A program made the translations under genes and the position numbers. Positions 1,650-59,418 of a stretch of 64,000 nucleotides of DNA are shown in pieces; position 1 is the stretch's first letter; the number at the start of each line of letters is the position of its first letter. This DNA comes from Bilabrum cf. latius (taxonomy: Eukaryota). The stretch spans positions 1,054,001-1,118,000 of the forward strand of contig OZ237751.1 of NCBI GenBank assembly GCA_965178125.1, in the 5' to 3' direction. A model generated the notes under the pieces. It was given only the letters and a program-made list of their open reading frames with translations. It was not told the DNA's origin and ran no database searches.

Positions 1650-2561
1650 ATGAGAGCTGTCGGACGGACTGCAAGGACACTGCAGGTTGCTGTAGCCCGC
1701 TCTGCTGGTCGATTGTCGGTGGCTCCGCTGGGCGTGTAGAGGGCTGGGTACCACGAGAACATCGTGGACCACTACGAAAACCCCAGGAATGTCGGTGAGG
1801 CACGTGCCGCCGTTTCTTCACGCATAGAACCTATCTGGGACACACCCTGCATTGCAAGTATTACTCATAGCTATGTTTCGCAGGTTCACTTGATAAGAAG
1901 GCGAAGACAGTTGGAACTGGCCTCGTAGGGGCACCATCGTGCGGCGATGTCTTGAAGCTGCAAGTGAGGCCGCCAGTTGGCGCTTCATGCCACAATTTTG
2001 CATTACACGCAAGTCGGCTATCGCATACATAAACCCCTATTTATTTCTCATGCCCAGTACTTCTCGTAATCGTTGCACTGCTTCTACTCCTCCGCAGATG
2101 GAAATCGACGACGAGGGCCGAGTTGTTGACGCAAAGTTCAAGACGTTCGGTTGCGGTACCGCTATTGCTTCTAGGTGAGTAGGTACAAAGTATCTCAAGC
2201 AGCAATTCCTGCCGGTGAAGCGACCACTTTGCACACGTTATTGTTGGCAAGCATGCTCACGACTGCAACTGCTTCAGAGTTGACTGCAGAGATGTGAATC
2301 TGAGCGTCGCATCACGTGCACATTTGGCCATTCATTTCATGTCTTGCATTATGCCGCAGCTCTGTCGCAAGCGAGTGGGTGAAGGGCAAGACATTGGACG
2401 AGTGCATGACAATCACGAACAAGGACATCGCCGCTCACCTCAAGCTGCCCCCCGTCAAGCTGCACTGCTCCATGCTGGCAGAGGACGCCATCAAGGCGGC
2501 TGTCAAAGATCTTGAGAGCAAGGGATGGCAGCCAAAGCAGGCCGCCGAGCAGAGGAGCTGA
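1650..2561 (+). CDS. ISCU: Mitochondrial iron-sulfur cluster scaffold protein IscU/Isu1, 4 exons (1650-1794, 1884-1963, 2098-2174, 2360-2561), in-frame TAG at 1737
   Basis: Spliced translation gives YHENIVDHYENPRNVG-SLDK..GTGLVGAPSCGDVLKLQ..AKFKTFGCGTAIASSS..LPPVKLHCSMLAEDAIKAA (three Cys and the LPPVK motif). GT..CGCAG introns are in compatible phases. The Arg/Ala-rich presequence from ATG 1650 contains TAG at 1737-1739. Stop is TGA. Confidence 0.95.
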
Positions 2562-3028
2562 GCGGGCGTCACGGCTGAAGGGGGGCGGGGGGAGGAGGGA
2601 GGGTCTCCGTGGAGCACCTATGTATGCCACAGGCAGGGAGTATGCGGGCTCCGGCGTGCCGAGCAGGTGTTGCTACCCAGCGCACGCCGCGTCACGGTGC
2701 GCTTGGACTTGCTGCTGATGCACCAGCCGTGGATGAGACTGTATGAATGAATAGACCAGCTGCTGCTTTGTAATAACCTGATGAGATAGCTGCCCTAGTG
2801 TAACCCTAGATTTTAAGAGAACACTTCGCAATAAATATGCATGACAGGTAGCGGTCTACCTCACCATCCAAACAAATTCAGCGTAGTACAAAGGTAACGT
2901 GCAAAACAAAATCCTGGCTAAATCATACTTTCGGAAGCCGCTCGTCCACAGCCAGTTGTCCTGATCAATAAGTCTATACCAAATACGATAATTACACCAC
3001 TGTCTTGGTCTTGAGCGCCGTTGGTACC

Positions 3029-6000
3029 ATGGGTTGCGGCGCATCCAAGGCTGCCGTAGAGGTAAGTGGTGGTTTTTTTCCTTCCACCGGTGGTCTTCCG
3101 TTCGGCAATCCGTTTGTCCTAAACCTTCGGCCTGATCCGTGTGTATATTTTACGCTAATATTACGCAGAATGGCATCGGTACACCTGTGCAGAAAACTAG
3201 CACTCAAATATGCCCCATTCCAAGAGACTCGCCAACCCATCAGGATCAGCTGAGTGAAAATGCGGCATCCCGGCCCAATACAACCCCTGATGTCATCGAA
3301 ATGCTGCACGCTTCGATTATTGGAGGCTCAACGAACATTTCAGGTCCGTTTGGTCCGCGTCGTATCGTGTATGTCGACTACACGGCGAGTGGGCGAGCAC
3401 TGGAATGCATCGAAGATGTGATTCATAAACAGGTCCTCCCCCTGTACGCGAATACACACTCGGAGCTTAGCCATAATGGATTACAGGTAAGAATACTCGA
3501 TTACGATGGCCGAAAAGTATAGCAGCTTGATGTAGACGGCAGTACGCGATCGAAAATAATTCGGCGATCACGGGTCGATCAATTTCTTGCATCTCCAATT
3601 CGCAGACAACTGCATTTCGAGAGGAGGCGAGAGACGCTGTACTCCGGTACTTTGGAGGTAGCCCATCGGAGGATGTAGTGCTCTTCGGTGGCTCTGGGTC
3701 CACCGGTGCCATCCTCAAGCTGATAGGAATCCTCCAGATCACGCACGCCGCCGCCGCCGCGCAAGGAGCCAAGCTCGACGCTACTCGCCCTGACTCTCCT
3801 GAATCTGTGTATTCAGTTGATGGGGATGCTGACGACACTCTGGCTGATGCTATGGTGGCGGCCATGAGCACAGGTGAAGTGGAGGTCGGCGGGAGCTTGC
3901 AGCCGGTCGGCGCCAAGGACGAGGAGGAGGATGAGGAGGATGAGGCTGCCGGTGGGGAAGAAGACGGCGGGGGTGGTGGGGAGATGCCGCCGATGCATGG
4001 TCAGGCTGCCAGCGGCGGGCAAGCCGAGGGCGGGGCCCCAACGCCGGTGAGCGCCGGCTCGGGCAAGCGGCCTCGCCTCGCTGCCCTCCAGCTGGCGGGG
4101 GCAGGAAGCACCCGCGGGCTTGGCCTGGCGCAGCGAGCCAGCACGCAGCGGGGCCGGCTGGCAGTAGACCCCTGGCCGTCCACGCGACTCATCGGTCTTC
4201 TCGCAGAGGGTTCATCCGGAGCCGGAAAGGCCCCGGGCTTGTCCGGCGCGATGACCCCGGGCCCTGGGCGGGTGGCGGCGCTGACTGGAGGGAGAGGCGC
4301 GGGGGCTGCCAGTGGGGCGACGGGCTTCCGCTTTGGTACCACGGCCGGGGCTGCGGCGGCGGGAGGGATGCACCGCAATGGGCTGCACAGCGGCCCTCTT
4401 CCAGTAGACGCGGAGCTGGGCAGTTCCCCTACGCTGTTCAACCTGCCGATCGGCCCCCGGTTCTCGCCCTTCAGGCCGTCGAGGGAGGGCTTCGAGCAGT
4501 CCGTGCTGCGGCGCAAGGCCTCCAGGTCTCGACTGAGGCACGCTGCGGGCCGACAGTCCATTGGCCACGGGGGTGGGGGCCTGCACGAAGCCATCGTGGA
4601 AGAGGAGGAGAGCAAGGAGAACGACGGGGGTGCGGGCATCGGACAAACCAAAGCAGCACCCAACAGGCAAGAGCAGGAGCCTAAATGCCTGCCTCCACTT
4701 GTGTTGATCGGTCCGTACGAGCACCACAGCAGCATCCTCCCGTGGCAGGAGGCGGGCGCCGACACCATGCTGCTGCCTGACACCCGCTTCCCCACAGAGG
4801 GCACCTCTGGGTCGAGGCAGTCGGGCCCCGATCTAGAGGTGCTGGAGCGGGTGCTGCGGGCCGCCACCAACGGGGGCCGTCTGCCGCCCTTTGAGCTCGT
4901 GTCGCCCTGCAGCCAGGACCCACTCGTGCCGGTGGGTCCGTTCGGCGACCTGGATGGGCCCGAGGACAAGGGGGAGGCCAAGGCGGCCTCACCGGCAGGC
5001 GGGGAGGCTCGCCGGATGGCCCGCGGGCTGGCACCCACCGAGGCGGACGAACCGCCCGAGGACGTGGACCCGAGCCAGTGGGCCAGGGCGGTGAGGAGGG
5101 GCCAGCGGCCGCTGATCGTGGTGACGTGCTCTGCGCTGGCAAACCTGACGGGCGTGCGCATCGACGTGGAGGCGGTGGCCCGAGTGGCCCACAGGTACGG
5201 TGCCATCGCCGTGGCGGATGCGGCGGCCGCTGCCCCCCACATCCCGATGTTCATGAACAGGACGCACGGGGCGGAGGGCAGAGGCGAGTGCGAGGACGGG
5301 GTGCAGGATCGCCCCAGCTCCCTGGACTTCGGCGACTTCCGCTGCTTCAAGTCGGGAGGCCCCGGCGAGTTCCTGCCCGGGATCGACGGCCCGCGGGCGT
5401 CCAGCCTGGACGCAGTGGTCGTGTCTCCCCACAAGTTCATAGGGGGGCCCAACACCCCCGGGGTGCTGCTCGTCAAACGGGCGCTGCTGTCCAACAGTGT
5501 GCCCTCTTCCCCAGGGGGCGGCACGGTCTTCTTCGTGAAGCCGGACGGGGGACCCCTGTACCACACGGACCCCACGCTGAGGGAGGAGGGGGGCACCCCG
5601 GACATCGTCGGGAGCATTCGGTGCGGGCTCACCATGCGGCTGCACATGGCCGTGGGCAGGGAGCGCATTGCCTCTCTCGAGCAGGAGCGCATGGACATGG
5701 CCATCGCGCGCTTCCAGGCGCACCCGAGGATCCACGTGGTGCCGCTGGAGGCACCCGTGGGCAGCGAGGGAACAGGGCCCCTGCACGTGCCCCGGGCGGG
5801 GATCATCTCCTTCATCGTGTCTGCCTCGGGGCGGGTGCACTGCAGTGACCTGCAGGGGGCGGGAGAGAAGCCCCCCGTGTTTCCCCTGCCCGTGCTCAAG
5901 GGCAGGCTGGCTCTGCACCACGGGCTCGTGCAGAGGGCCATGTCGGACCTGTTCGGGGTGCAGTGCAGGTCAGGGTGCATGTGCGCGGGGCCGTATGCCA

Positions 6001-6692
6001 CGCGCACCCTGGGGATCCACCCACCCTCCATCATGGGCCCCGTGCTGGAGGAGATCCGGGGCGGAGACGAGATGGCCCGCCCGGGCGTGATCCGGCTGTC
6101 GCTGCCCTTCCACATGCCCATGGAGGAGGCCCGCTTCGTGGTGGGGGCCGTGGAGTGGGTAGCCACCCATGCGCGGGCACTGCTGCGCATGTACGCACCC
6201 ACCAGGGCTGGGCTGTGGCTGCTGCGTGAGGGTGCGCGTGCCTTCGACCTGAGGCCAAGGGGGAGCGCGGTGCTGGCTGTAGGGGGGAAGTAGGGGGAGG
6301 AGGAGGAGGAGGACGAGGGAGAGGAAGGGGGGCACGGCGGGAGTGCCCTATTGCGACTGCCCAGCGCTGCAGGCATGCTGAAAGGGGTGAGCGAGGCATC
6401 TGCGGAGGGACCGGGGGCTGTGGGTGACATGGTGCCCGCTGAGTGGGCCCCTCGGGAGCTGCTGGGGGCAGCGGCGGCGGTGAGGGAGCACCTCGTGAGG
6501 AACGAGGCGGGGCGGGAGATGGACTGGGGGGCGTACTTGAGAGGCTGCGTGGATGTTGCGGATCGCATCTCGGGTGCCGTGCTGGAGGGGCGCGCCGAGT
6601 GTTGCGGCGAGGACGAGGACAGCCTGCTGCGGCCGCACGCGACGCAGCGGTTCCGATGGTACGCAGTGGACGGGGAATTGGATGGGCTATGA
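3029..6692 (+). CDS. Aminotransferase class-V PLP-dependent enzyme (cysteine desulfurase/SufS-like), exons 3029-3061, 3169-3486, 3606-6692, in-frame TAG at 6291
   Basis: Motifs YVDYTASGRAL, YANTHSE, GPYEHHSSILPW, VSPHKF (PLP lysine), EEGGTPDIVG and RSGCMCAGPY. N-terminus MGCGASK. ORFs 3678-6293 and 6351-6692 share a frame and are separated only by TAG. Stop is TGA. Confidence 0.85.
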
Positions 6693-6791
6693 AGCGATAA
6701 TCCGTTTTGAGCGAAGACCTTTTGAGATGATCAATCTTCTCTTTGCCGCAAAAGGACGCACGGTGCGGCAGAAAGAGAGGATCCAAACTCA

Positions 6792-8070
6792 TCAGTCGCC
6801 AGCGCCACCTGCTGCAGCAGCGACAGGGAGACCTGCTACAATCGCATCGATCTGGCCAGCGTCCCCACCGTTAGCCTTGAGATTGGCCACAAATCTGGTT
6901 TGCCGGTCCTTCGAATCCGTTCCGGTCAGGTCGTACCCGATGCTGCAGAGATCTTTGAGCATCTAGGCGTTGTTCAGGTCAAGGCCTTGAGTGAGCAGCT
7001 GGCACAACTGCACTGGATCTCCCTCCATGTAGGCAATAGCACCGTTTCCTCTCTGCGTAAATGAGTAGCAAGTCGGCCGTGCGCTTCGACAGAGATGATT
7101 CGTGCGAGGGGGCGGATCCTGGTCACATAACACGACGCACCCAGTCAGGCAAGGACAGGTCCGGGCTCGCATCCAGCATCAATGACGCTATCCTGATGGA
7201 AGTGGATGTGCACTTCTTGAGAGCAGCTACAAGTGGTGTCTCCAATTTCTGCGAGACAATGAGCAAATCAGGGGGGTTTTATCGCAGATAATCGCTGATC
7301 CATTTTTTGCCGCAGTCTGCGCCGACCCATGATTTCTTCAAATATGCCTCTCACCCGCGAGTCGCGGATGTTCACGCTTGCCCCGGCCTCAATGAGCTGC
7401 TTAGCCGCCTTATGCAATCCATGCTCGACGGCTATGTGGAGGATCGTGATGCCATCATCGTCGGGATTTTGCCAGTTTAGAACCTCCTTCGGTGCCTCCT
7501 TTATCATTGGCTCATATTCAATCATATCTTTGCGCGGTAGAAGATGGTTACAGAAGCCGTGGTGGCTGAACAGCGCTGCCATGATGGCTCTCGCCTGTTC
7601 CGCGGCAGGGCTGCGACCGAATCGAGCAGCAGGGGCAGAGAACGAGACGAGAGTACCAAATGTTGATACTATGCGGTATGATCTAACAGTGATGTGCCCT
7701 ACCCTACTTCAGAGGCAGCGCCTGCCCCGTGCATGCCCATCACTGCAGCCATTCTCTGCGACGGGAGACAGTGGAGAGAGCCCTTGGTAAGGGTTTTATA
7801 CTCGTGGGGTGTGGCAGCAGCGCCCTGTTTGAGAGCTAAACCAGTTGATCTTATACTTACTTCTTCGTAGTGGATTCGCTTTGACCTTAATTCGCGCTCT
7901 TGCCGCACCCATCTCGCGGCAGCCTCGCGTTCTTCGGCCTCCTTCTTCTCGGCGGCAAGCACTCTCAGCTGGGCTTGGGTTGCGCGACCATAGGACGCAG
8001 CGGCAGTGCCTGGGGTATAGCCATAGTGCTCATCTTCTTCCGAGTCCGTGCGCAGCATGTCGGCGTCCAT
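6792..8070 (-). CDS. Small ankyrin-repeat protein, predicted exons 8070-7861, 7755-7703, 7610-7355, 7248-7141, 7052-6792, in-frame TAG at 6965-6963
   Basis: DDDGITILHIAVEHGLHKAAKQLIEAGASVNIRDSR-KLETPLVAALKK ankyrin repeats joined across GT..CGCAG introns with matching phase. The last exon reads through TAG to tandem TGA TGA. Linkage of the two 5' exons is less certain (one GTAGGG donor). Confidence 0.7.
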
Positions 8071-9200: not shown

Positions 9201-12200
9201 TGAGTATACGTCACAGGGTGGTGTGCAGGTGGCTCTTGCCGTTATAGCGAAAGCGGGCAGTCGAGTGAGTCCCGGATCTTGTCGGTGGTTTGCGATGAGC
9301 AGCTCGTGCCTCGCGGAGGGGTTCAGCGATAGGCATGGTGGAAAGCAAATACTGCCATTGGAAGACTCGTTTGTAAAAGACAAGTCAGACATAGTATTTC
9401 AGCCATAATCTAGGTAGAGACAGCACTAAGGTGGGGCAAAAATGATAGCGTATACTTTTGGGCAATACCGGAATCTCAGGTAACCAGATCTCACCCACCA
9501 AGGCGTGGTCGACTCTTCTCCCCATTTGCTGTCACGGGACTGCGGCTGTATCCGCAACCCGAGGACTGCGTTTTCGAATCCCTTTTCAGTGTGTTTTCAG
9601 CTAGCACATTTTACCGGATGCAGCGCGCACAGGTCGTGCTTTTCGCGGCCGTGGCAGTCTGCGTCGCGGCCTCCGACGTGTTCTATTCTGAGCTCTCGGG
9701 GCGCGGCGATGCCCTCAAGCGGCGCGATGAGGCCATAGCTGGGGCAATGGATGATAAGGCTCTTTTTGTTGAGGGTCGAATCGCCAGCAATGGCAAGCCT
9801 ACGGTCATGATCGACGATGGTGAGCAGAACGCGTCGACGAAGTCGCTCAACTGCAACTGAAGGTTATGCGGTCGTTGCGTTGCAGCTTCCCATACAATAA
9901 TAATCTTATTAGTTGATACTACCCTATCATTCTTTGTTCGCAGAAGGAGTGGCCTCGAGCGAGGATCGAACCGGTACGGTCAGCCCAGCAGCGGTGACGG
10001 GCGCGGCCCACGCCGCCTCAGAGGACGCCGTGTACGTTTTTGGGGGCACCTCGGACGCTGCTTCTGGAAGCAAAGTGCTCAAAGATACCTACAAATTCAC
10101 ATACAGTGAGTGCGTGCCAATATTGCTGCACAGCGATCGGGGTGGGGGGCGCAGAGGCCGCCACTGGCAGTGACGTCTGCCCGCAGGTCCGCCCACGTAC
10201 ATCCCGCTCCACGCTTTTTCCAGCCGATTGACTGCCGATCAGCCATGCACTCGCTGGCACCTCAATCATTCCTACCCATGCATTTAGGATCATTGTGATT
10301 TTCGTCTTACTTTGGCACCCCTCATTCCCTCCCCGCAGGCACCAAGAGCTGGACCAAGATGACCATTGCCACTGACACGCGGGTGGTGGCCCGCACCGGT
10401 GCCTCCGCCGCCGTCCTGTCCGACTGCCGCGCAGAGGGTGACGAGTGCTTGGTGGTATTCGGCGGTCTCACCGGGACCAGCGCCGCCAGCCCGAACACGG
10501 ACGTCCTCACCACGGGTGAATCCACGGTGCAGTGGCTCAATCCAGCAGGGGCCAAGGTGGGCGAGAAGCCCCCCGGGCTCATCCACGCCGCCATGGTGCC
10601 CGACCCCATGGGCCGCACCGCCGTCTTGTTCGGCGGCAAGACTTCGGCGGATGACGAGGACGCCACGGACGCCGTCTTCGCCATGAACTCGGCCGGCTGG
10701 AAGGACCAGTCGCTGCTTGCCAACATCGCGAGGGGCAAGTCCGTGTACATGACCAAAGCCAAGCAGCCTACTAACACGGGCCATGCCTTCCACCCGTCGA
10801 ACGCCGTGGACGGGCGCACCGCCAGCAACCGAGATGCGGGGTACTGCGCTCTGGCGGATCGGGTCAACAACCCAACCATCTCGGTGGATCTCGGGGGTGC
10901 TCGCACCGTCACGGAACTCGTCATTTACCCGCGAACGGACTACGCGACCGGGTACGGCAACACGGTCAACGCCCGGTTCGTGGTGAATGATCACCGCACA
11001 GACCCTCTCAACAGGGACGGCAACTGGCACGAGTGCGAGAGCCCCTACTCGAGCGGCAGGCTGCCCGTGCCCTCCCGCATCTCGTGCGGCAGCGTCACTG
11101 GGCGCTACGTCCACATGTTCCGCCGCGCCAACGATATCCAGCTGGACGTGTGCGAGATCCAGGTTATGGCCCCTCATCCCTACACGTGGAAGCAGTTCAA
11201 CTACGGCGAGGTCGAGGTGGCAAGGGGCAAACCCACCGTGGGGACGCCCATCGCCCACAGTGGTGTGTGGAGCCGCATCAATGATGGGGGCAAGAACCAG
11301 AGGTACAACTCCGGTAAAACGTGCACGCACTCCATCAACACCAAGCCTGCGGGCGAGACACACCACTGGGTCCGGCTCGATCTGGGCAAGCAGTACCAGC
11401 TCAACAGGGTGAAGATCTGGAACCGGTGGGAGGGCGAGGCCCTGGCACGCCGCCTGCGCAAGACCGAGGTATGGGTGGGCAACGTGGGCGACGACTTCAA
11501 GCTCAACACAAAGTGCGCCCAGCTGCCCGACAACACGGCTACCGTCAACACGTACGAGACGGCCTGTGAGGGAACAGGGCGCTACCTGTGGGTGGCCAAG
11601 TCCTGGGCCGATACGAACGATGACAAGGTGCTAACGGTGTGCGAGCTCGAGGTGTACGCCAAGCAGATGCTCAACGTGCCGGCCGCCAGGTCTGGACACG
11701 CTATGACGCACCATCGGGGGGCGGGTTGGATCTTCGGCGGCATTGGCAAGGACGGCAAGGCTCTGAGTGACCTGCACGCGCTGGACCTCGCGTCCATGAC
11801 CTTCAATACGGCGCTTCAGGTCATCGGGGACCTGCGGCCCTCTGCCCGTGGGTTTGCAGCCCTGGCGCCTGCTGGCCTAGAGGCGCTGGTGCTCGTGGGA
11901 GGGCGCACAGGAAGCTCGCTGGCATCGACTCGGGCCGAGAAGGACTACACCATCACGCTGCCGCAGTGCCAGAGCATCAGCACCACCGGGGTGACCGACA
12001 GCGACTGCTACAGGGGCAGCTGCGAGTACACGTGCAACACGGCAGGCGAATACAGCCCCACCAACCTGGCGGGCGGGCCCCCAGTGACGTGTGAGCTGTC
12101 TGGGTACTACTCTGGCTCGCTGCCCGTGTGCTAGGGCAAGGTCCCGACCAAGGTCACTGTCATCAACACCGGGACTGGCGACAAGAGCCGGCTAGTGGAC

Positions 12201-15200
12201 GGCAACAGGAAGGTGCGCGTGGTGTGGAACACGAACGGCGTGCAGAACGGGTCACCTTCTACCTTCACTGGGTTTTTGGTGCGGTCCTCCTCCATGCACT
12301 TGGCGGAGAACTTTGACACGATCTCACAGCTTCCCCCCGGGTGGGAGTGGGACAACCGGCGCAGATCGGCGACCAAGTTCACGATCGGCAGGAGCGCCAA
12401 CGGGGATGGCTATTTGGATCTGTCCATGGACGGCCAGGCAAACTGCTGGTTGAGCACCCAGAACTGCCCTCGCCTCCTCATCCCGCACCCCCACGGCATC
12501 ATCGACCACAACATACTTGACACACAGAACCGGCACAGGGGCAACTCGTGGACGGCCGAGGTCCGCGTGCGCATGACCACGCTCCAGCCGGGGAATGCAG
12601 CTGCCGGCCTTGGCATCGTGCAAGATTCCGGGTCGGACGGGAACCGCAACGGACGGGTGCGTTTCATGTTCATGCTACGTCGTAACGCGGGCGAGACCCG
12701 GCTCAGGTGCCATGTGCAGGAGAACCAAGGTACCAAGGGCACTGACCGCATGCTCTACGGCACTGGGCCTCTGCAGAGGGACGTGTGGCTGCGCATGAAG
12801 TACGATGTGATTGGCAATCGATTCACTTTCTTCTGCCGCATGAATCACGAGACGACGTGGCAAACGGTCATACCCAACGGTCTGTTCCCACCCAGCCACG
12901 GCGGAGACCTCACCTATGGCCGGGTGATCCTGACGGGCAAGAACTGGTCCAACCGGCAGCAGGTGTTCCGCTTCGACAGCTTTTCTCTGACGGTGGACGA
13001 CTGCCCCTCCTCCGCGATCACACGCTTCATTCCCGCCGCGGATGCCAGGATCGGCACGACGACCAGGTACTAGGCCGACATCGGGGGCCTGACGGCTGGC
13101 GTGTACTACAAGATGCAAGTGGCTGCTGCCACAGAGGCCGGGCTGGGCGACTGGTCCGACTTCACCTACCGGCACCGTGCATCGCCCAACCTAGCCAGGC
13201 CTGCTGGTCTCTTCAACATGGCTCGCAACAAGCCCGTGGCTGCATCCAGCATCCTCAATGACGACAACGAGGCTGAAGAAGCCGTCGACGGAGAGCGAAA
13301 CGGGCCCCTCTTCCGATCTGAGGAGAGTGAAAACCCGTGGTGGCGGGTAGATCTTGGCTCTCGCAAGCGAGTGTGGGAAGTGGTCATATATCAGAGAACG
13401 AACTGCTGCAGGGGTCGCGGACAGGGTGGAATGGTGTACGTGAGCGACACGCCCAGCTGGTCAGCCGGCACCGCCTGTGAAGGCATCATGAACCCGCATG
13501 GCTCCAACCCGGTGACCCTCCCATGCAACGCCATTGGTCGGTATGTCTATGTGCGGCTGCAAAAGACCAAAGAGTTCCTGGAGCTGCGGGAGGTCGAAGT
13601 CATGGTGGACGAGAAGTGCGACACGAGGACCCCGCTCAACACCAACACAGAAGGCACGTGCACCGGAGCCAGGGACGGCGACTCGTGCACGGCCACGTGC
13701 CAGGCAGGCTATGCCAAGTCATCGGGGGAGGAGACGGCCGTATGCAGGTTTGGCGAGTGGTCGGTCCCCGAGCCCGTGTGCGTCAAGCAGTGCCCCTCCG
13801 TTCCTGCCCCCTTGGGTACCGAGACATGCACGCAGACAGTGGCTCGCGAGCAATTCACCAAGCTGGCCTCCGGGGCCGACCCTAACCTAGAGCCCATCCT
13901 GCGATTTGCCTCGCTGGACGAGGACACATTCCCGCTGAACGAGTACTGGGGCGTTATCGACGGGCGCATGGTGGCAGGGGCTCCGGCCGTGGACGGGTCC
14001 ATGGGCAAGTGCCTGCTGCCCGGCCAGGGGATGGTGGCCATGCTGCAGGACCCGGATCCCTCGGCCATCGACGGGTCCGTCAAGATCACAGTCAAGCTGG
14101 CGGGCGAGGATGACGCCGGCCTCGTGTTTGGGGCGGCGGGGCCAAGCACGTACACGTTCGTGTCCTTGGGCTTTGTCACGGGCAAGCACAGGCTGGTGAA
14201 ACGGATAGGAGGCGTGGACATTGAGCTGGGCTCCTCCAGGGCATCGGTCCGCGCGCTGGACTCGTCCATCCCCATGGACAAGCACGAGCTGGAGGTGCGC
14301 CAGGACGGTGCAAGTCTGCTCGCACTGCTGGACAACGTGCGCCTGTTTCAGGTGGAGGACAAGGCCGCGCTGGTCGGAGACGTGGGGCTGTGGACGCAGG
14401 GCCGTGCCGAGTTTGACGACCTCGAGGTGCACACTGCGTGTCTGACATCTGGTGGCGCGGCAGTTAGCGGGTGCAGGGACTTGTTTTACCAGGACACGTG
14501 CGGTTTCACGTGCAGGCAAGGGTTTGACCTTGTGGGGCAACAGCAGGTCGGCTGCAAAGCCGACGGATCGCTGTCCTCGGCTGCACCTGACTGCTCCATC
14601 CGGCCCCCTGTTGCTTTGGACCAGAACCGCACGGTGGTGGAGGAGTCAGACCGCAACACCGCTGTGGGTGACCCCTTGGTGGCCACACTGGAGGCCGACG
14701 AGCAGATCGAGTTCTCTATTACGGGGGGTGATCCGAATGGGGCCTTCAAGGTCGGTCTGTGCGACGGGCTGATCCGAGTGAAAGACCCGCAGCTGATCGA
14801 CTACGAACAGGTGTAGGTGTATAATCTGGAGGTGACCATCGGAATCAGCGGATACAGGGCCAATACGACTATCGCTGTGCGAGTGGATATCATCGACAGG
14901 AACGAGGCACCCTCCATGGACGCCTAGAGCTTCAACGTCTCGGAGAACTCGGCCTCTGGCACACTCGTGGGCGGGGCCCTTGAGGACCTAGCCGAGGATC
15001 CCGAGGATGACGACCTCACGTTTTCTCTGGATTTTGACGCCTCCAACGGGCTACTGCAGATCGACGCAGCTACGGGGCAGTTGAGCGTGAACCACTCGGC
15101 GCCAAGCGGAGCCACCGGTGCATCGCACCCATTGGACTATGAGTCGCTGCCCGGGGACGGGTCCTACCTTCTCATCGTTCGAATGGTTGACGTGGCTGAC

Positions 15201-18200
15201 AACCAGGCAAGCGCGTTCGTGCGAGTGTCGCTGCTGGACGCCAACGACGCCCCCCAGTTGGACAGAGGCGAGGCAGCCTATGCGTCGCTGCCCCAGCCGC
15301 AGATCGCCAGCTTCGACGAGAGTCGGGCCGATCCAGACGCAGTGACCGCCGGCGCCTTGATTGAGCTCAGCCCTGGGATCGCGGCCAGCGACCAGGACCT
15401 CGAGGAGTTTGAGTCTCCATTGACATACCGCTTCACGTCCAAGGGGGCGCAGGGGAGCGCCGCGCTCTCTGGGCTGGTCACGAAGCTAGCCACGGCCGGG
15501 GGTACCCCTTCCTCTGCTTCCGGGCAGACGCTGCAGGGGATCGGGAGCGTGGACCTGTTCGCCCTCAACTCCAGCACGGGCGTGATCTCCCTCACGGATG
15601 TGCCTAGCAGCGACGGATGGTCCAATTCGGGCGATTTTCAGCCGTACCTTTCGCAGGACGCAGCCCCTCGAGGGCTGCTGGTGCGGGCCGAGTACGTGGT
15701 GGAGGTGGAGGTGTCGGATGGAAACGGTGCTACAGACACCCACGACGTGCGCATCGTCGTTGGAGCCAACTCGTCCAGCATTCCCATCGTGCGGAGGCTG
15801 TCGTGCGATGTCAACAATACGGACGCCGACCCAGACCTGTACCGCATCAGCGGTGTCGACGGACAGGACGAGACTCTGGGCATGGACGAGTCGTACCCAT
15901 ATCCCACCCGCGGAGGGGCGCTCTGCATCATCTCTGGTACTGGACTGGGCAGCAACATCAATGGGCTCCGTGCGTGGGGCACCCGCACTGTTGGCGGGCA
16001 GGAGCAGGAGGTGGACTTCACTGGGTGCGTGATGGAAGAGGTCGGCCAGGTGATCCACTGCAACTCGCCGGAGGGATTTGGAGAGGGATTTGTCCTCCGT
16101 GTGTTTGCGCAGGGACAGCCGGCGCTCATGGGTTCTCAGCTGCGCTTCGATTTTGCCAAGCCCAGCGTGACCACTGTGAGCGAGAGTGCACAGGCGTTGG
16201 CCACGGAGGGAGGGACCGAGGTAGTCTTCAAGGGCCGTAACTTCGGGCCCGCAGGTGCGGAGCAGGAAGTATCGTATGAAAACCAGAGGGGGCAGAAGTT
16301 CCAGTGCGCAGTACTTCCAGCCTCTAGTCTACTCGCGGGAGAGACGATCCACGACACGATGCGGTGCGTGGCGGCCGAGGGTGCTGGTGCGGAGCTGCAG
16401 TGGACGCTGCAGCTGGGCAACGAGACTCAGCTGGCCGTCAAGTCAGCGGGTGGGGCGGGGATGAGTGCGGAGGACCCGCTGGTTAATAACATGCTGGCAG
16501 CCTTCAGCTACACGCCCCCACGCATCACGTCCCTCGCTCCGCTAGACAGGCGCGAGACGGATCTGCTGGCCCTGGACACCCGCGGCGGAGACACGTTGGT
16601 CATTGAAGGCACCAATTTCGGGCCAGCAACCGAAGTAGCAACAGTGCACCTGTCATACTCTGCATCCAGCGTGGTGCGTGCGATTGCAGGGAGCGGTGTG
16701 GGGCAGCTGGGCAGCTTTGAGACGACCATGGCTAGCTGCTACAAGCCCGAGGGGGGCATGCAGGCGCACCGGCTTATGCATTGCGTGACTGGTCCCGGCG
16801 TAGGTCGCGGGGTGGTGCTGCAGGCAGAGGTAGCAGGGCAGATGCAGGGCTCTCCAACGTGCTATGACGGCGCCGTGGACGAGGGCGAAGCGTTTATCGA
16901 CGACCAGGATGTGATGGACCGATGCAACAACGGGACAGGCGTTGTTGGCTTCTTGTCTTACGCTCCGCCTACCATCGCGGCAGTCGTGGGGGCGGACGGT
17001 TCAGACACGAGGGGCGGGCAGTCCTTCACCATCCAGGGTACGGGTTTCGGTCCCGAGGAGCTAAGCGTGCAGGGCAGCGTCTCTGGTGTGAGGTATGGGC
17101 CTGCGAGTTCCGGCAATCTGCGGTACGACGCGACTTCGACGTGCCGCGTGACTGTTGCCGATACTGACATCGAGTGCGTGACGCTGCCGGGGACGGGCAT
17201 GGATCTGGGCTTCTCCGTTGAGGTGGCCGGGCAGGCCGCATCTACTGGGACGCTTGCCACAGCCCATGCCTACGCACAGCCGGTGCTGGCTACGTTTGAT
17301 GGCGAAGGGGCGGTTGATGCCGAGACGCCGGGAGGACAGACCATCGTACTGCGGGGCAACAACTTCGGGCCGATTTCCACTCCTACCACGCCCATGGACG
17401 CCACTTACAACCTCGCTGTGGCAGGTGCAGGCACCACGACCTTCAATGCGGCCGACTGCGTGCTGGTGGATGCGCACGTTACGATCGAGTGCAAGACGGC
17501 CGAGGGCGCAGGTAGGGCGCTGGCGTGGACCGTCGTGGTCGACTCGCAGCCCAGCCGCAGCCCCACGACCAACTATGAGGTGCCCGAGATCCTGGAAGTG
17601 CACCGACTGGGGCAGCAGGGTGTGCGGGTGGCAGATGCAGACGTGGATGGAGGAGATACACTGGTTCTCGTGGGTCGCGGGTTCGGGTCGCCTGACCTGC
17701 TGCTGGCGGACCCAGAGACGGGCGAGTAGCACCCAGCGCTGCAGTCCGTCACGTATGGCCCATTGTCGGGGCGCGAGTACACGCCCGCGAGCGTGACGCA
17801 CGTCTCACACACGGAGATACACATTGTGACGGCCCCCGGCTGGGCGCGGATGGCCTTCTTCAGGGTTGAGGTGGCGGGACAGGCGTCCCCCCCAGGTAGC
17901 CCCGATGCCCCCGAGGCCACTTTCGATTTTGCCACGCCGATTATTGTCAGTATGACGCCTGAATCGACCCAGGACACGTGGAGTCCTCCAAGCACACCTC
18001 AGTCGGTAGTGCTGGTTACGCGGTCGCTGCCCCTGTCGGACCCGCTGTCCAGGCCCGTGGTGAGCTTCGGGGGGCACGTGCTGCGGCCCACGGCGGCCGT
18101 GTCCAACACGGACGGCACGCAGACGGTCACCTTTGCGTTGCCCGAGCATGGGGGCGGATTTGCGGTCCCTGTGCGTGTGGGTGTTGCACCAATCGCGGGA

Positions 18201-21200
18201 GGGGATCGCGCGGCACCCGTCGGTGCTTCGATGTCTCAGCTGCTGGACGGCACCACTGGGTCCTCGAGCACTACATTCTTCCAGTATGATGCGCCAGCCG
18301 TGGAACGCATCGTAGTGACTAGGCCGGCGTGGTTGCAACCGGGGTACGTGGCTGGGGCCATGACCCCGATGGACGACAACTGCACGTTCGGCGCTGGCGA
18401 CCCGTTCACGTGTACCGACCGCAACGTGAGGCAGGTGGTGATCCTGGGACGGGGTTTCTCTGCCCCGGCCGGCTTCAGGGCCGAAGCGGATCCCCTGGGC
18501 CTCCTGCGAGGGGACGCCTCCATGGTGCCGCTCAACCGGTTCCCGCTCGTTGTGCGCACGTACTCGCACAACCGGATCCTGGCGTACACCACGGAGCAAT
18601 CCGGCACGGTGCGGGTGTCGGTCAGCAACACGTTGCCAGTGGAGCTGCTGGACCCTGGCATGACCGAGGGCCGCGGCATGCAGGCGGACGTGATGGAACA
18701 ACGCTCCTCGGAGGGCTCCTGGACCAACCTGGCGCCCAACATCGCGGGCCTGCAAGGAGCCACGACTGGCCTGCCCACCAGGGGCCAGAGCGCGCAGGAC
18801 GGTTCCCCGTCCGAGGGCAACGGCTTGACTGTGACGGTGGACGGACTCGAAACCACCAAGCGGGTGCGCATCCTGGCGGGGGCCTCCGCTGACGAGGCCG
18901 TGCCATGCCGCGTGTGGTCGCTGCTCAACGAGGAGTGGATGGTGCTGGGTGCCACTGATGACGAGCAGTACGATGCGGTTCAGCGAGAGGTGATCGACGT
19001 CATCGATGGAAACCTGGCTCAGGGCGAGCAGGCCGTGTATCAGCTGACATTCTTGGTGCCCGAGGCTCCTGCAACGGCCAGTCGACTGGACGATATGCGC
19101 ATATTCGTGGACCGGGAGGGTACTTTGTCGTCGGGTGACTAGTCGTTTGGATACGCGCAGCCCTACGTGGCAGCTGTGGACGTGTGGCGGCCGCCTGCAT
19201 TCGTGGCGGGGACGAGCTATCCTACCACCCCCAATGCCCCCGAGGCCTACTGGGCCCGAAGCATGGTGGCTGGAGACTCGGCGATTGTGTCCGTGCCAAC
19301 CAAAGGCGGATGGGTGCGGGTACGGGGCCAGGATCTGACACTATGCCCGCTGCTGCGAGTGGCCGATGGTGCGTCATACACGTGTGACGACGGCATTACC
19401 TCCCACGGACATTCGGCGGGAGCAGTGGCAACCGGGCGCTTGCCCTGCAACTCCGGCGCCCCTGGTCTAACCGCACCGTCGCTGCACGAGTGCTTCATCT
19501 CGCCCGTGCCGGAGGGAGAGGGAGACGGCTTGCAGTACAACGACACGTCGACGGGCTTCATGCTGGACGTCGAGGCTGGCAGGCAGTCCATGCTGCTGGC
19601 CGAGGACCTCGAAGACGTCGAGGCCGCCGGTGTCACAGATGGAGCGGGGGGGGTCGTGCCCAGGAGGCCTGGCGACGGTCTCACCGCCGTGCGGCTGGCC
19701 AATTTGGTCCGTGCCCAGCTTCATTACACGCATGATATGCCCACAGTGCGGAAAATTACGCCTGTGCAGGGGCCTGCCGTGCCTACTGCGGGTGGGGTCC
19801 GCATGCTTGTGCTGGGCGACAACTTCGGCGTCACGTCTCCCGCCCGCGAGCCGCAGATGATGTCGATCCCTGGGTTTATCCAGGTACATGTTGCGGTGCC
19901 AAGCAACCGATTTGGGGCACCCGAGGTGTATGGTCGGCCTTCCGAGTGGGTGCACTGCACGAATGCGACAAGGCTTGACCACGAGCGTATCGAGTGCAAC
20001 CTGCCCGAGGGTGCGGGTCAGGGTCTGCCCGTGAGGGTGGTGGCTGCGGGGCTGCAAGGCGAGCAGGACGGGCTGCTGTCCTATGATCCTCCGGCGGTGA
20101 CTGGGCTTGCCCTGCATGGTTTCTCGCCTGCTTTCTTGCAGGCGATCAGCGACCCCACCCGCATGCAGCTGCCAAGGACCACCACCACGGCGAGCGAGGC
20201 AGACCCAACGGGCCTGCTGCAGACGGCTGCAGTGTTCGCCGACCCAACGTTGCAGGTCCAGGTACCCAATGCCTCAGTGCGCTTCTTACTGGGCCCCGTG
20301 GTGCTGCATTCGACAGACGACACCCAGCTGCAGCTCGGGGGGGTTCCCACGTGGGGCGCGCGGCCGGGGCTCGTGAGAGCCGACCCCTCGCATCCCGCGG
20401 CAGCGCACGTCACTCTGTATGGACGAAACCTAGGCCGGCGCGGCGCCGTGGGAGACCCTCGCCTCTGTGTGTTTGCCTCATGGATCCACCGTGCCGCCGA
20501 CTCTGAGCTGAACTGCGATGGGGTGGAGAGCTTCCCCGGCGAGGGCGAGGTGCCCCAGGCCCGCGTGGTGGTGCACACACACGACCGCATCACGTTTGAG
20601 CTGCCCGAAGGTGCGGGCTAGCGTGACATTGACGTGTCTATTGGCGGGCGACAGCTGGTGCAGACTGCGCTATCGCAGCCCCGCCTCATGTACGGCGCAC
20701 CCCTCATCAGCGCAGTCAGTCCCCTGAGCCCAGCCAGCGGACCGACCACGGGAGGCTACGAGGTGACGCTCAGGGGATCTAACTTTGGCCCCAAGCAGCG
20801 CAACACCTCCATCCCTCGACTGGCTCTGGATGTACAGGGCGCCGTCCTTGTGCCACCACTGCCACTTGCCGAAGCCCCAGGCATGCCCACCGAGTACCTG
20901 GTGTTGTCTTTCTACCGCAGCTGCATCACGGATGCGCGGTCCCCGGAGGGCATCCGTCCGTAGACCGGCAGAACCGCTGGCTGCAAGTACGAGCTGGTAG
21001 ATCGCGACCACGATTTCGTTACTTTCCGAGTGCCTGAAGGCATCGGAGCGTCCCGGAATGTGGCCGTGGAGGTGATGGACGCCGCTGTTGCCATGGGCAC
21101 CGTTCCCCAGGGCCAGGAAGAGGGGTACTACGGATACACGGGGGTGCAGCGGGCGGAGAGTCCAGGCGCTTTCTCGTACGATACACCTACTGTAGATCGC

Positions 21201-24200
21201 ACGGATCCTGCGCGCGTGTACATGGGTGCCCAAGGGCTTCTGGAGGACTACAGAGGGGCGCTGCAGGCGGCTCGTGCTCGCATGCTGGAGCTTGGCGCTG
21301 AGGAGGACGAAGCACGCGTGGGCGACGTCAGCGATGCCATCAGGCTGGAAGCACAGTCTCCGTTGCGGCAATTCATCAACAGCGGGGCCTTGGCTTGGGG
21401 AGACGAGCTGGAGGCGCTGCGTGCTGCTCGTCAGCCCACGGATCCTCCGATCGAGGGGCCTTCCAAGAAGGTCTTCCTCTTCGGTCGCAACTACGGCAAC
21501 CCCGCGCTGGCGGTGGAGCAGGAGTGGACGGAGGAGGAGCTCAGAGTTGCAGTGGCAGTGGGCGGCATCGACTGCAAGACCGCTCAAAGAGGCCGCAGTG
21601 CCGTCACGGATGATCCGAGCGAGGACCCGGCGTCCACGCAGGTGGAGTGCGAGATCGAGGCGCTCACAGTGGGGTACAAGAACGTGACGCTTGACATCGC
21701 GGGGCAGCAGGGGCAGCTTGCGGCAAGGGTGGGGACTAGTGGCGTGCACTTCGTGTGCGCTCCAGGGTCCTTCGGAACGGACGGCAGGTTCTGCCTCCCG
21801 TGCCCCGTGGGTGCAGACTGCAGCGGCTACGATACCGACCTGCGCGAGTCCACGGTGCCCCGGCCGCAGACGGGCTTCTTCAACCTCAACTCGTCTGACC
21901 CCGTATCCGGTGATATGACCGACGCCGAGTGCCCCGAGAGGAGGCAAGTGCCCACCAGGGACGTGTGCGTGGTGGCATGCGAGCCGCAGTGGGCATGCAC
22001 GGGCGACAACTTCTGCGCCATCGGGTATGCCAGCAAGGCGCCCATGTACAGGTGCAGCAGCTGCGCAGATGGCTTCTACCGGCGAGCGACGGAGTGCGTC
22101 AAATGCCCTGACAACCCATGGATCCTAATTGTGGCCTTTGCCGTGCTGGCCGTGGGCGCATGTGGCTTCGGTTTCTGGCTGAACCAGTCCAAGATCAACA
22201 TCGCACTGATTGCCATCGGCGTGGACTACTTCCAGGTGCTCGCCATCTTTGCTAACGCTCGAGTGTAGTGGCCCCCGTTGCTCAAGGACATGTTCCACAT
22301 CCTGTCCGCCTTCAACCTCAACCTCGAGATCACGGCCCCCGAGTGTACGGTGCCCGACTTGCAGTACATGACCAAGTGGTTCTTCATAATCCTCCTGCCC
22401 GTTGCCGCCATGGTTATGGTACTGCTCACGTACCTGCTTGGCATGGTGTACGTGTGCGCCAAGAGCGGCAGGTGCAAGCAGCCCAAGGACAAGACCAAGG
22501 ACGAGCTGGCTCCGCTGGTGGCGGGCGCCATTGTGCTGAGCCTGTTCCTGTACCTAGTCACCACGCGGTCTATCCTGGACGTGTTCAATTGCATTCCCAC
22601 CAGTCCCCCCGATGGCCAGCTGTACATGCAGGCCGTGTTTGAGCCTTGCGGGCAGAAGGGTGGCGTGCAGCAAACCCTACTGCCTTTCGCAATCATTGCG
22701 CTGGGCGTGTACACGATCGGGTTCCCCACATGGGTGGGCTTCATGCTGGTAACGAGCCGCAAGACGATGCTGCTGGACCAGCTGATGCGTGCCATCGGCA
22801 AGGGTAACGACATCAATATCGATTGGCCCAAGGACGTGCAGGATGCGTGCCAGTTCAGGCAGCGGTACCAACGTCTGTACTACTACTTCAAGCCCGAGTA
22901 CTACTGGTGGATCGTGACCATCCTGGCGCGCAAGGCCCTGATTGCGTTCTGCTCGCTCTTCTTCAACACCAACGCGTCCTTCTAGATGGCCGCCGTTAAC
23001 ATGGTGCTGTTCTTGTGCTACACGGCCCAGGTGCGCTTCAACCCGTACATGCCGCCCGCCGACTACGCCGAGGTCATCACTGGCTGGGCCCAGAGCGCGC
23101 TGGACTCAAGCGCAAAGGACGCGCGCACCCCAAGCCGTTTGGCGGTCAAGGACATCGAACAGGCCGCCAGAACCAGGAGCGACCAGGCCGGGGCGGCAAC
23201 CTCGAGCGCAGCCGGGTCAGTGATCCGAGACTCTGCCGGCCGGGCCGTGACCTCGCGAGACGTGCACGGCGAGCTGTGGTTCAAGATCCGGGAGGTGATC
23301 ACCTCGTTGGACAGGAGGGACCAGCGAAGGTTCGGTACCACGATGGACAGCGCCACGATGGGCGGGAGACAAGCAAAGCAGACGGCCATTGGCGGGCTGG
23401 GCACAAGCATCGGGGTACTGGGCAACTCGCTGATGAACTGGAACACAGTTGAGACGCTTCTGCTCTTCTGTGCCATCATGGTGACGCTGGGTGGCATCAT
23501 GCTCGAGTCGGGTAGGCTGGACCAGGAGGGCGCCGAGGGCCAGCGGGACGCTCTGACTATCCTGCTGATGCTGGTAATCATGGTGTCCATCGTGTACTAC
23601 TTCACTGTGCTCTTCACCGAGGTGTACGTGCTAGTGACGGACGCCCAGGACCGCAAGGCAGCGCAGATCCAGAAGGCGGCCAAGCTAAGGAAGAAGGGCG
23701 TGGCGGGCGGTGCTTCTGCACCCAGCGCTTCCGGTGTCATGGAGGAGGTCGAGATCGATACGTCTGGCATGCAGCACCAGAGCAACCCGGCCTTTGCCTC
23801 TCAGAAGGGCAGAGAGTCCGAGGCGGGGAGCCAGGCTATGGCGGGGCAGATCAAGGAGATCACGGGGCTGGAGAACATGGACAAGGAGACGTGGACACGG
23901 CTGCGGCCCCAGCTGGAGGATTTCGCCGGCAGGTTCAGCGAGATGAAGGAAGAGATTGACGCCCTCAAGAAGGACCTCTCCAGGGCCCACGCCAGTGGTG
24001 GCAGCGGTGGAGTGGGAAGTCGCAGAGGGACGCTCACCGGGGTTGCTGGTGGGATGAGTGGCAGCGGCATGGCGGCCAATCCCATGCAGGCTTTGAGCGG
24101 CGGGTCACGGAGGTCATTTGGGCCTCGTGGCACAGGGGGTGGCATGGGAGGGAGGAGAGCGAGCAAGGGGCTGCTGGCGGCTCAGCGCAGGGCCTCCCTG

Positions 24201-26568
24201 AAAGGGGTCGGGAAGGAATGATGGAAGCAAGGATGGGCTGGGACCCGATTACACAAGGTTTCTTTCTGAGCGGCGCTGCGCCTGGAGGTGCTGCAAAGCG
24301 ACCCTGAATGTCCTCTGACTTTGATTCAAACTGATCGAATCTCCCACCGCCTTGGATCGGATGGAGGACGGATCGCGTAATCGGCCCTCTCTTGCGGAAG
24401 ATTGAGGCGGGCAGAGCGATCGGCAGTCCCCATCCCTGATCCACGGACTGGGGATAGGTCAGCTGTCAGGAGTGTGTGCTTGACAACATTGCTTGTACTA
24501 CATATTTTTTGGCTCAGTTAATCTTATTCAGTGACACAACGGCTGTGCACGCCACGCGTTCGAGATTCGAACACAGCCCCTCGTCCTTGACTTGTGGCAT
24601 CTCTAGTCCAGGTTGGGGCCAGCCGGCCCCTGCGTCTGGCTATGGCATAGATCTACCCATTTGGGGGAGGGCGGCAACAGGGATTGATGAGAGCGCCCTC
24701 GGCCGCCGACAACTTGCCCATCTCCGGTCACCCGACCTCCCTGGCATCGCCCGCCCTCTCCGTCCTATTGTCATGATCATCATGACTCATCGGATACTTG
24801 GAGAGGTCGCCGCATTCTGGCAGGGTGCTGGGCCACTCCCAACGATGCTGCTACGGATCGACTCTCGACCTGATTGCCACCAAGGTGCTGTGGAGGGCCA
24901 TCTCAGCCCACTGGCAGCTGGTGCATGATGAGGCGTGGTTGCCAACTGGCAGTGCCACCGTAACCGCCACCCACTGGCAGCGGCAGTGGCACGGCCGGGC
25001 ACTGGCTCCGATCGGATCGTATGCCGTCTTGCCAGTCACACTTACAACCTTACACAGCATCACCATGGATAGATCTTCACATGCTGAACATAGCACATCT
25101 GCAGAAAAGGTGAAAGAATCATTGAAAATACTAATCTAGGATGCTACTGGCCGGCAGGAAGCTGAATGCAACTACCGGTGCGAATGGCTCACCGCAAGAG
25201 TTTTCAGCCACCGTGGGGGCCAGCAGGCATTGTAACGAAGTATTTCTCGCGTCCATTTGGTGAACTCGTCCTTGCGAAAGAGTTCATGCCGAGTGCAAGC
25301 GCAATATCACAACAAATTGCTGTAGCATGCAACTCTGCATTGCTCGCAAAGTACGCTGGCGGGCACCTATACGGACCTGAATGGGGCATTCAATCTGGGT
25401 ATCGCGAGCATATGCGTGTATGCTTGTCTTACAAGAGGCGTTGTGCTCAACGTGGTGATGATGAGGATCCAGGCACCAGTGCCAGAGGAAGTGCAAGTAG
25501 CGCTGGACCCGCGCTCGCATCTAGTGCGTCGGACCTTAGCGATGATTAGCTTATCGCTGCACCCGCTGAAAATGCTCGACTTCATGTCAACCGGCCGGAC
25601 GATGAGCGCATTTTGGTCGCGTCGGCCGCCGGCAACAGGCCGACAGCTCTCTCGGGTTCACGTGCAGGCACGGAGCCTCGTGGCCGCTGCATCGGCTCGG
25701 GAGGGGGAGGAGCCACTGCCAGAGGTTCCGGAGGACCCTGCCCTCACTTATGCATCGCTTCGCATGCACCGCTCTAGCCTCGTGCAGACATTTCCCCCTC
25801 TCATGGTGGGTATCGGCAACCAGATGTCCTTTGCCGGAGATGCTCAAGGAGATTCTATTCGAAATTTGTTGCATCCTAGCAAAGGCGCGGATCTGGACGC
25901 GCTGCTGGAGGGTCGCAGCAGGGCGGGGGGCAAGACTGTGACTAACGTGGAGAGGTGGGGGAAGGACATCTCCTCTATCGAGGCGGCGGGGGTCGGGAAC
26001 ATGTACCAGCTCGTGTCGGCCTATTCGCTGGCCTTCACCATCTGGCATTGTGACGTGCACTCATCGCAGCTGGATTGCTCGGCAGAGGCGGAGAGGCAAA
26101 TGGTGACGGAGCACATCGGGCCAGCGATCGTGGCGCACTAGAGGGTCGAGACTCTAGAGTTCGCGAGGTTTAAGAACCTGATCGAATCCGTGAGGGGCGG
26201 GGGCCACCTACTGCACTCGGCATCCAAGATTATCTTATGCTCGGGGGGAGTCCTATAGCTGGCTCGAGCCAATTGCGGATGGAGGAGGATCCACAAGCAG
26301 TGCCGGTGATGGAGCCACCGGTGCTGCAGCTGAACCGCATGACCCCCTGAAGCTGGAGGGTGTCCGCACACTCGGGCCCAAGGACAAAGCAAGAGCAGAA
26401 GCTGCCTCAGAAGATGCTTCAAGCGGCTCTGCGGGGATCGTGTCAGGTGGCGGGATGGCCATTCGCCGGCCAGACGCACTTTCTCAGCTCCTGTCCATGC
26501 CGATCTGTGCTGTTGAGGCGCAGCCTTGGGTTGCTGCCATCGAGATGCAGGCAGTCCTCATGCTCCGA
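8881..26568 (+). repeat. Tandem segmental duplication, unit 1 (~17.7 kb)
   Basis: Collinear near-identity to 26569-45395, with offset 17,878-17,881 over the giant gene. Confidence 0.95.
9618..24221 (+). CDS. Giant (~4,748 aa) cell-surface receptor/adhesion protein, copy 1: signal peptide, kelch-like repeats, F-type lectin/F5-8C domains, sushi/CCP, cadherin repeats, IPT/TIG repeats, Cys-rich region, multi-pass TM domain, coiled-coil tail. Exons 9618-9819, 9944-10105, 10339-24221
   Basis: Ten listed ORFs (10359 to 22986) are all in one frame and are separated only by TAG at 12132, 13071, 14814, 14925, 17727, 19140, 20619, 20961, 22266 and 22983. Motifs NPWWRVDLG, DRNEAP/DANDAP (cadherin), T.GG..V...G.NFGP (IPT) and DYFQVLAIF..WP (TM region). 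Stop is TGA. Confidence 0.92.
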
Positions 26569-51579: not shown

Positions 51580-51645
51580 TTAGGGTTAGGGTTAGGGTTA
51601 GGGTTAGGGTTAGGGTTAGGGTTAGGGTTAGGGTTAGGGTTAGGG

Positions 51646-51690
51646 TATCTAATATAAAGTCAGGGACAGGGTCGGGGAAAAAATATTTTC
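51646..51690 (-). mobile_element. Element E5, 45-bp leader-only stub
   Basis: Leader sequence alone between two TTAGGG tracts. Confidence 0.65.
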
Positions 51691-59352: not shown

Positions 59353-59418
59353 TTAGGGTTAGGGTTAGGGTTAGGGTTAGGGTTAGGGTTAGGGTTAGGG
59401 TTAGGGTTAGGGTTAGGG

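Follow-up and report, generated by a model that had tools for sequence, protein, structure and literature searches.

In-frame TAG codons, very probably read as glutamine, in the nuclear genes of the bicosoecid-like stramenopile Bilabrum cf. latius

Three genes with an in-frame TAG

The analysed stretch of 64,000 nucleotides (the window; contig OZ237751.1, positions 1,054,001 to 1,118,000, or C17:1054001-1118000) belongs to the assembly GCA_965178125.1 of Bilabrum cf. latius, which comprises 48.6 Mb in 111 contigs. Near the start of the window lie the genes of ISCU, of a pyridoxal phosphate (PLP) enzyme of aminotransferase class V and of an ankyrin protein, each interrupted by an in-frame TAG. 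Based on these genes and on others sampled across the genome, it was concluded that the nuclear code is very probably one in which UAG specifies glutamine, while UAA and UGA are stops (NCBI table 15 type). The features of the three genes are as follows.

1650..1794, plus strand: ISCU exon 1 (presequence and start of the conserved block), from contigs and reading frame
1737..1739, plus strand: in-frame TAG, ISCU codon 30, very probably read as glutamine, kept in spliced RNA
1884..1963, plus strand: ISCU exon 2, with GT..AG joints in runs X1, X2 and X3 and none in X5
2098..2174, plus strand: ISCU exon 3, from RNA-like contigs
2360..2562, plus strand: ISCU exon 4 with a TGA end; loose poly(A) end at 2776
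3029..6692, plus strand: gene of the aminotransferase class V (PLP) enzyme, with two introns (3062-3168, 3487-3605) and a TGA end
6291..6293, plus strand: in-frame TAG of the PLP gene, followed by a tail of 132 codons with a positive coding score and then TGA
6789..7582, minus strand: ankyrin gene with a TGA TGA end; intron 7140-7053 seen spliced
7354-7249, minus strand: ankyrin intron, predicted only and retained in the one contig seen
6963..6965, minus strand: in-frame TAG of the ankyrin gene with 56 codons between it and the stop; present in a spliced contig

All three TAGs reported by the initial annotation were recovered: in ISCU, at codon 30 counted from the ATG at 1650 and four codons upstream of the YHENIVDHYENPRNVG block; in the PLP gene, followed by 132 codons up to the TGA at 6690-6692; and in the ankyrin gene (6965-6963), followed by 56 codons up to TGA TGA. 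The ATG at 1650 was not the sole upstream in-frame ATG of the ISCU block, as had been stated, since two more, at 1596 and 1602, share its frame. Nevertheless, all three precede the TAG and none lies between it and the conserved block, hence the argument for readthrough stands and a start codon downstream of the TAG was ruled out. The genes were also confirmed to be single-copy by the searches run: the NifU_N profile matched the ISCU locus alone (two matches, both to its own exons), the PLP tail gave one full match and one weak 21-bit match, and the ankyrin gene gave one DNA match.

The transcripts were examined in runs X1-X3, which were taken as RNA-like because of their GT..AG joints and poly(A) end, neither of which occurred in the DNA-like run X5. 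Two studies contributed the three RNA-like runs that show the ISCU intron joints. Record 5 of X2 spans 1675-1793 with 0 differing letters and has each of the three ISCU introns removed; therefore the mature message contains the TAG at 1737, which does not serve as an intron acceptor, and an intron ending at this codon was ruled out. Record 4 of X1 spans 6854-7052 with 0 differing letters and is spliced to 7141, thus the ankyrin TAG is retained in RNA, although the contig carrying it also retains the predicted first ankyrin intron. The PLP TAG was bridged by none of the listed RNA-like pieces; the contigs end at 6253-6261 and restart at or after 6333, and the gap surrounds a GAG-rich repeat. 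The presence of the exons and the TAG in mRNA, suggested as a check by the annotation, was thereby verified for ISCU and the ankyrin gene, but the PLP TAG had no bridging contig. The contig depths (78 versus 7.6) were unusable for ranking parts of one gene.

Downstream of the TAG, the in-frame coding score was +15.6 for the PLP tail and +4.6 for the ankyrin tail, with all five other frames negative in each. Since a Pfam search of both tails gave no match, it is these scores that argue for their translation. A homolog search with the C-terminal region of the PLP enzyme returned a single protein, and no alignment was obtained between it and the tail past the TAG. The caution that the three TAGs lie in poorly conserved segments was well founded, ISCU being the one gene that forces readthrough by itself.

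Genome-wide reach and meaning of TAG

The proposal that the recoding is genome-wide, and not the decay of duplicated DNA, held up: in-frame TAG was found in the single-copy genes above, in eRF1, in all 19 dyneins read and in Ras-family genes on many contigs. The dynein set consisted of 19 heavy chain genes with 61,171 codons in the read frames. TAG occurred in 19 of the 19. With TAG read through, 18 were open over more than 3,000 codons in a single frame, the nineteenth being broken once by an intron or a frameshift. These frames contained 275 TAG, 2,215 CAG and 372 CAA codons and 0 internal TAA or TGA, and the share of TAG rose with falling third-position G+C content. Among 28 matches to the dynein AAA_6 profile, the internal stops were 20 TAG, 0 TAA and 0 TGA; among 65 matches to the Ras-family profile they were 48 TAG, 2 TGA (one at a match edge) and 1 TAA. 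In 40 evenly spaced 10-kb stretches of the genome, 16 of 26 long open reading frames contained TAG (69 TAG, 592 CAG and 81 CAA). TAG accounts for about 9-10% of glutamine codons and is the rarest of the three. It was also found in frame in the GluRS gene.

It could be argued that such TAGs stem from faulty assembly or decaying pseudogenes, lie in unannotated introns or are removed by RNA editing, and both the uncovered PLP TAG and a second, divergent 18S gene in the assembly would fit this. However, independent DNA and RNA-like runs agreed with the window without a single difference at the ISCU and ankyrin TAGs, decay would also have yielded TAA, TGA and frameshifts, the 18 long dynein frames are uninterrupted, and a relative with 82% identical DNA (L145, see below) has its own TAG at a glutamine codon. 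This explanation has already been largely refuted, and its probability was considered practically negligible.

A further comparison was provided by two large genes of the window:

10359..24221, plus strand: membrane protein of 4620 amino acids (F5/8C, Kelch, cadherin and TIG domains) in one frame with 10 TAG and 0 TAA
28240..42099, plus strand: paralog of the membrane protein with 4506 of 4618 aligned residues identical and 10 TAG

The two copies share 14 TAG columns, of which 8 are variable. The other copy has CAG at all 8 of these, and exchange of TAG for TAC, TAT or GAG was seen at 0 of 8. There was 0 TAA in the approximately 9,240 codons of the pair.

The initial annotation held that the TAGs show readthrough but not which amino acid is inserted. 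This is true of its three genes, while the residue was resolved to glutamine from others. The dyneins were compared first with 120 outside proteins, mostly of one class, and later with 267 more diverse references, from which the near-relative fragment P0383 was excluded. In columns conserved to at least 90% among the 267 references, glutamine was the residue at 14 of 15 TAG, 172 of 188 CAG and 17 of 19 CAA positions; with the 120 references the corresponding values were 22/44, 244/445 and 23/48. At the 70% level (267 references), 22 of 37 TAG columns were glutamine, and tyrosine and tryptophan were outside the top six. The column profile of TAG correlated best with that of CAG (0.958), followed by CAA (0.895).

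In the Ras family, 30 loci were read. The glutamine of the switch-II G-Q-E motif, the catalytic residue, is encoded by TAG in 8 of the 30 loci and by CAG or CAA in 13, the motif being uncovered or different in 9. In eRF1, one TAG falls at a column with glutamine in 82 of 85 references.

The use of TAG at gene ends was assessed in a sample of 32 defined ends, which covers 12 dyneins reaching the conserved C-terminus (TGA 9, TAA 3) and 20 of the 30 Ras loci, those with a terminal cysteine motif (TGA 16, TAA 4), rather than the whole genome. TAG ended 0 of these 32 genes (TGA 25, TAA 7), which bounds its true share below about 9%. TAA was found to end eRF1, 3 dyneins and 4 Rabs. In the 40 genomic stretches, a TAA or TGA followed within the next 40 codons after 4 of 58 TAG, 6 of 70 CAA, 21 of 27 TGA and 1 of 3 TAA codons; TAG thus differed from TGA and TAA combined (p=2e-10) and not from CAA (p=1). 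Non-coding-like sequence followed 25 of 27 TGA and 3 of 3 TAA codons in coding context.

We proposed that UAG specifies glutamine because TAG occurs in conserved frames and in spliced mRNA, is aligned with glutamine, is swapped with CAG and is unseen at defined ends. The results are consistent with UAG having become a full sense codon with its own tRNA, for which the term readthrough would be an understatement. TAG would then be merely the rarest of three glutamine codons.

The UAG-reading tRNA, GlnRS and eRF1

One tRNA gene with a CUA anticodon was found (C23:907607-907679, minus strand, 69.8 bits). It folds into a complete cloverleaf, and a T-run lies downstream. No second nuclear copy was found among intronless genes by DNA search and by a pattern for the CUA loop, with 63 of 780 candidates scored; intron-containing copies would escape this pattern. 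Overall, the tRNA is identical to the tRNA-Tyr of the same genome at 50 of 72 positions and to its tRNA-Gln(UUG) at 49 of 72. The D arm resembles those of its Gln(UUG) and Glu(CUC) tRNAs (16/19), and G73 is as in Gln(UUG). In the review PMC9976931, eukaryotic tyrosine identity is given as A73, C1-G72, G34 and U35, and no eukaryotic glutamine determinants are listed there. The tRNA-CUA has two of these four tyrosine determinants (C1-G72 and U35), with G73 in place of A73 and a position 34 other than G.

The protein evidence, rather than the tRNA itself, suggests that tRNA-CUA is charged with glutamine, presumably by the cytosolic GlnRS. It would decode UAG and not UAA, as C34 is not expected to pair with A. 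The anticodon-binding region of GlnRS (L259, C33:559564-559830) has FG for the KR of the human, Thermus and Deinococcus enzymes. The same FG variant is present in plants, and the GlnRS change was not counted as evidence.

The eRF1 gene (C35) contains two in-frame TAGs and ends with TAA. Its protein was compared with 85 references, using human numbering anchored on PDB 1dt9, and was found to differ from at least 90% of them by R28K, G29A, N30D, I35V, S60V, F114I, F117P, N129S and K130H. L69 and N129 are tied to the recognition of a third-position G in PMC4381064, and N129S is also found in a sister clade of the eRF1 tree. This eRF1 has probably lost the ability to recognize G at the third position, or recognizes it less well, through changes around the GTS, NIKS and YxCxxxF motifs, the candidates being G29A, N30D, I35V, S60V, L69Q, F117P, N129S and K130H.

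Several observations on the codon, the tRNA and the release factor weigh against UAG being plainly glutamine. Glutamate is found at 9 of 37 TAG columns at the 70% level, compared with 16 of 377 for CAG, and the second eRF1 TAG lies at the column of human position 69, which is leucine in 81 of 85 references and glutamine in 4. The tRNA-CUA is identical to tRNA-Gln(CUG) of the same genome at only 44 of 72 positions and is not copy-like, and its acceptor stem, as read from the cloverleafs, shares 6 of its 7 pairs with that of tRNA-Tyr, C1-G72 among them. The eRF1 keeps T32, E55, S70, Y125, C127 and F131; L69Q is common in other eRF1s and hence not diagnostic; according to PMC4381064, N30A had no effect in yeast; and the junction of eRF1 exons 1 and 2 is a prediction. 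As to gene ends, the 10 of 30 Ras loci without a terminal cysteine motif were left uncounted, and TAG occurs in the tail of five of these. Non-coding-like sequence follows 11 of 58 TAG codons (CAA 12/70, CAG 8.7% of 607); some of these TAGs may be intron donors, and rare terminal TAGs are possible too.

Some of these points would suit a code in which UAG is read as another residue, such as tyrosine through a Tyr-like tRNA or glutamate, or as a mixture of glutamine and tyrosine. The tRNA-CUA has C1-G72, U35 and a Tyr-like acceptor stem, and among TAG columns glutamate ranks second. Yet neither tyrosine nor glutamate codons replace TAG between the membrane protein paralogs, and the log-likelihood of the TAG columns was -4.4 for glutamine, -165.5 for glutamate as the next residue and -393 for tyrosine, which places glutamine ahead of glutamate by 161 log units. 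TAG also stands at the Ras switch-II glutamine, and the tRNA has G73 and lacks the A73 and G34 of tyrosine identity. Another residue at UAG was therefore considered highly unlikely.

An ambiguous UAG, read as glutamine within genes and as a context-dependent stop at some ends, as in Condylostoma or Blastocrithidia, was likewise considered. The 32 ends limit the terminal share of TAG and do not bring it to zero, eRF1 keeps T32, said in the literature to contact the guanine of UAG, non-coding-like DNA follows a small number of TAGs (one of them in L125), and a single tRNA-CUA gene was found. On the other hand, TAG was absent from the defined ends and behaves like CAA with respect to downstream stops. 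Moreover, TAGs about 11-19 codons ahead of true ends are read through in L253, L093 and at 42061 of the window, including one ahead of a CaaX motif and one where the paralog has CAG, which argues against a dependence on proximity to the gene end as in ambiguous codes. An ambiguous UAG thus appeared very unlikely, and glutamine as its sole meaning was preferred.

Relatives, known codes and other features

The organism is a bicosoecid-like stramenopile related to Cafeteria, as judged from two single-gene trees. Its eRF1 has the best named match in Cafeteria (69% identity). It is sister to Cafeteria in the dynein tree (FastTree, local support 99), and the less firm, quick eRF1 tree groups the two at 90 inside a 100-support clade that includes Bicosoecida CB-2014. 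The mitochondrial genome (C111; 38,401 bases, 24% GC) uses TGA for tryptophan with a tRNA-UCA and TAA for stops, and all genes among its listed long open reading frames are on one strand. UGA is also tryptophan in the mitochondrion of Cafeteria roenbergensis/burkhardae, the closest named relative (Hackl 2020, PMC6972860). A non-standard code is mentioned only for the mitochondrion in the accessible part of that paper, and the database eRF1 and dynein of Cafeteria are of full length with unaltered eRF1 motifs, so its nuclear code appears to be standard.

Metagenome contig L145 (L145:2-709) carries an eRF1 exon with 92% protein identity (578/708 in DNA, with 100 synonymous differences). It has TAG at a codon that is CAG in the present genome and ends with TGA; a second species thus shares the code. 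Another metagenome eRF1, from a sister clade (L187:2-1300), has two in-frame TAGs, a TGA end and an N domain with extensive changes (TASQIKS, L69N, S70A, N129S). It may represent a second UAG reassignment; its neighbour L181 has no TAG among 18 glutamine codons. The database protein P0019 corresponds to the piece of the L187 eRF1 between its two TAGs. Dynein fragment P0383, which is 91% identical to L091, stops exactly before a glutamine of the gene from the present genome, and this end probably reflects a standard-code gene call cut at TAG. L201 and L205, two of 80 metagenome eRF1 loci, have in-frame TAA as well as TAG and probably use ciliate-type codes.

In nuclear codes, reassignment of UAA and UAG nearly always goes hand in hand. 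According to PMC11687900, in which the word stramenopile is absent, the reassignment of UAG alone to glutamine (table 15) occurs in one fornicate, Iotanema spirale, and three ciliates, Hartmannula sinica, Trochilia petrani and Protocruzia tuzeti. The present organism resembles them in having glutamine at UAG, stops at UAA and UGA and thus UAG uncoupled from UAA, as well as the CUA-anticodon tRNA expected for such a code. It differs in its stramenopile position, its GC-rich coding regions, its main stop, which is UGA (25 of 32 ends) and not UAA, and its lower share of TAG among glutamine codons, given above, in contrast to 18.5% and 31.8% in two table 15 ciliates. The Iotanema study (Panek 2017, PMC5304391) gives eRF1 T32G for that organism and L69A for exLh, and predicts an origin of the tRNA from tRNA-Gln(CUG). 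Here, T32 is kept, and the tRNA-CUA is unlike the predicted duplicate.

The table 6 code (UAR as glutamine; Tetrahymena, Oxytricha, Ulvophyceae, Hexamita, Streblomastix, Amoeboaphelidium) also has glutamine at UAG, whereas here no internal UAA occurred in any frame examined, and UAA terminates genes, among them eRF1. UAG alone is reassigned, as in this organism, to leucine in the rhizarian exLh and in phyllopharyngean metagenome-assembled genomes from TARA and to serine in Scotinosphaera; the amino acid is a different one, and position 69 of eRF1 is alanine in exLh and glutamine here. In the ambiguous codes of Condylostoma and Blastocrithidia, the reassigned codon ends genes and is depleted near ends, while none of the 32 ends here is a TAG.

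A nuclear reassignment in a stramenopile was not found in the literature searched, mainly the accessible parts of papers outside subscription journals (including PMC11687900, PMC11412368, PMC10120064, PMC13466520, PMC5294986, PMC12574857 and PMC12153298). The code itself is known; new would be a lineage without a reported case and a tRNA departing from the predicted origin. A broader scenario can be offered only tentatively, and as a whole it seems rather doubtful. According to it, this would be the first stramenopile nuclear reassignment, the tRNA would derive from tRNA-Tyr by a GUA to CUA change, like an amber suppressor, or from a Tyr/Gln chimera, and would have switched to glutamine identity with G in place of A73 and a D arm resembling that of tRNA-Gln. 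GlnRS may likewise have changed in adaptation (KR to FG), and the L187 lineage would possibly be independent. If the last point were true, bicosoecids would become a new hotspot of code change.

The stramenopile case would add an independent origin in a GC-rich genome with UGA as the dominant stop, unlike the usual AT-rich cases. Megabase contigs with the tRNA, eRF1 and GlnRS genes, together with relatives with and apparently without the change, make it directly testable how eRF1 gives up UAG but retains UAA and UGA. A standard-code annotation would shorten many long genes, as indicated by the 16 of 26 sampled frames with TAG, and database fragments already show such cuts (P0019 and probably P0383).

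Two different 18S genes are present in the assembly, at C95:6099-7900 and in the C12 array (L257, L258), of 1802 and 1700 nt and 77-83% identical, and a second eukaryote is likely contained in it besides the main organism. A search for a virophage- or Polinton-type A32 ATPase, aimed at TAG use in endogenous viruses, found none, which is not proof of absence.

Within the window, positions 1-1505, together with L083, show the end of a gene that exceeds 1,700 codons and resembles a tandem glutaminase with ankyrin repeats at the C-terminus; it has 3 in-frame TAGs upstream of the window. The two membrane protein genes lie in a tandem duplication of about 17.9 kb (10290-27200 and 28171-45064), each unit also containing a degenerate open reading frame without a Pfam match. 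Twelve interstitial TTAGGG arrays intermixed with a 155-base repeat occupy 46214-63031, and a block duplicated at a distance of about 7.8 kb includes an acidic open reading frame with TAG, located at 53702-54757 and 61475-62512 on the minus strand.

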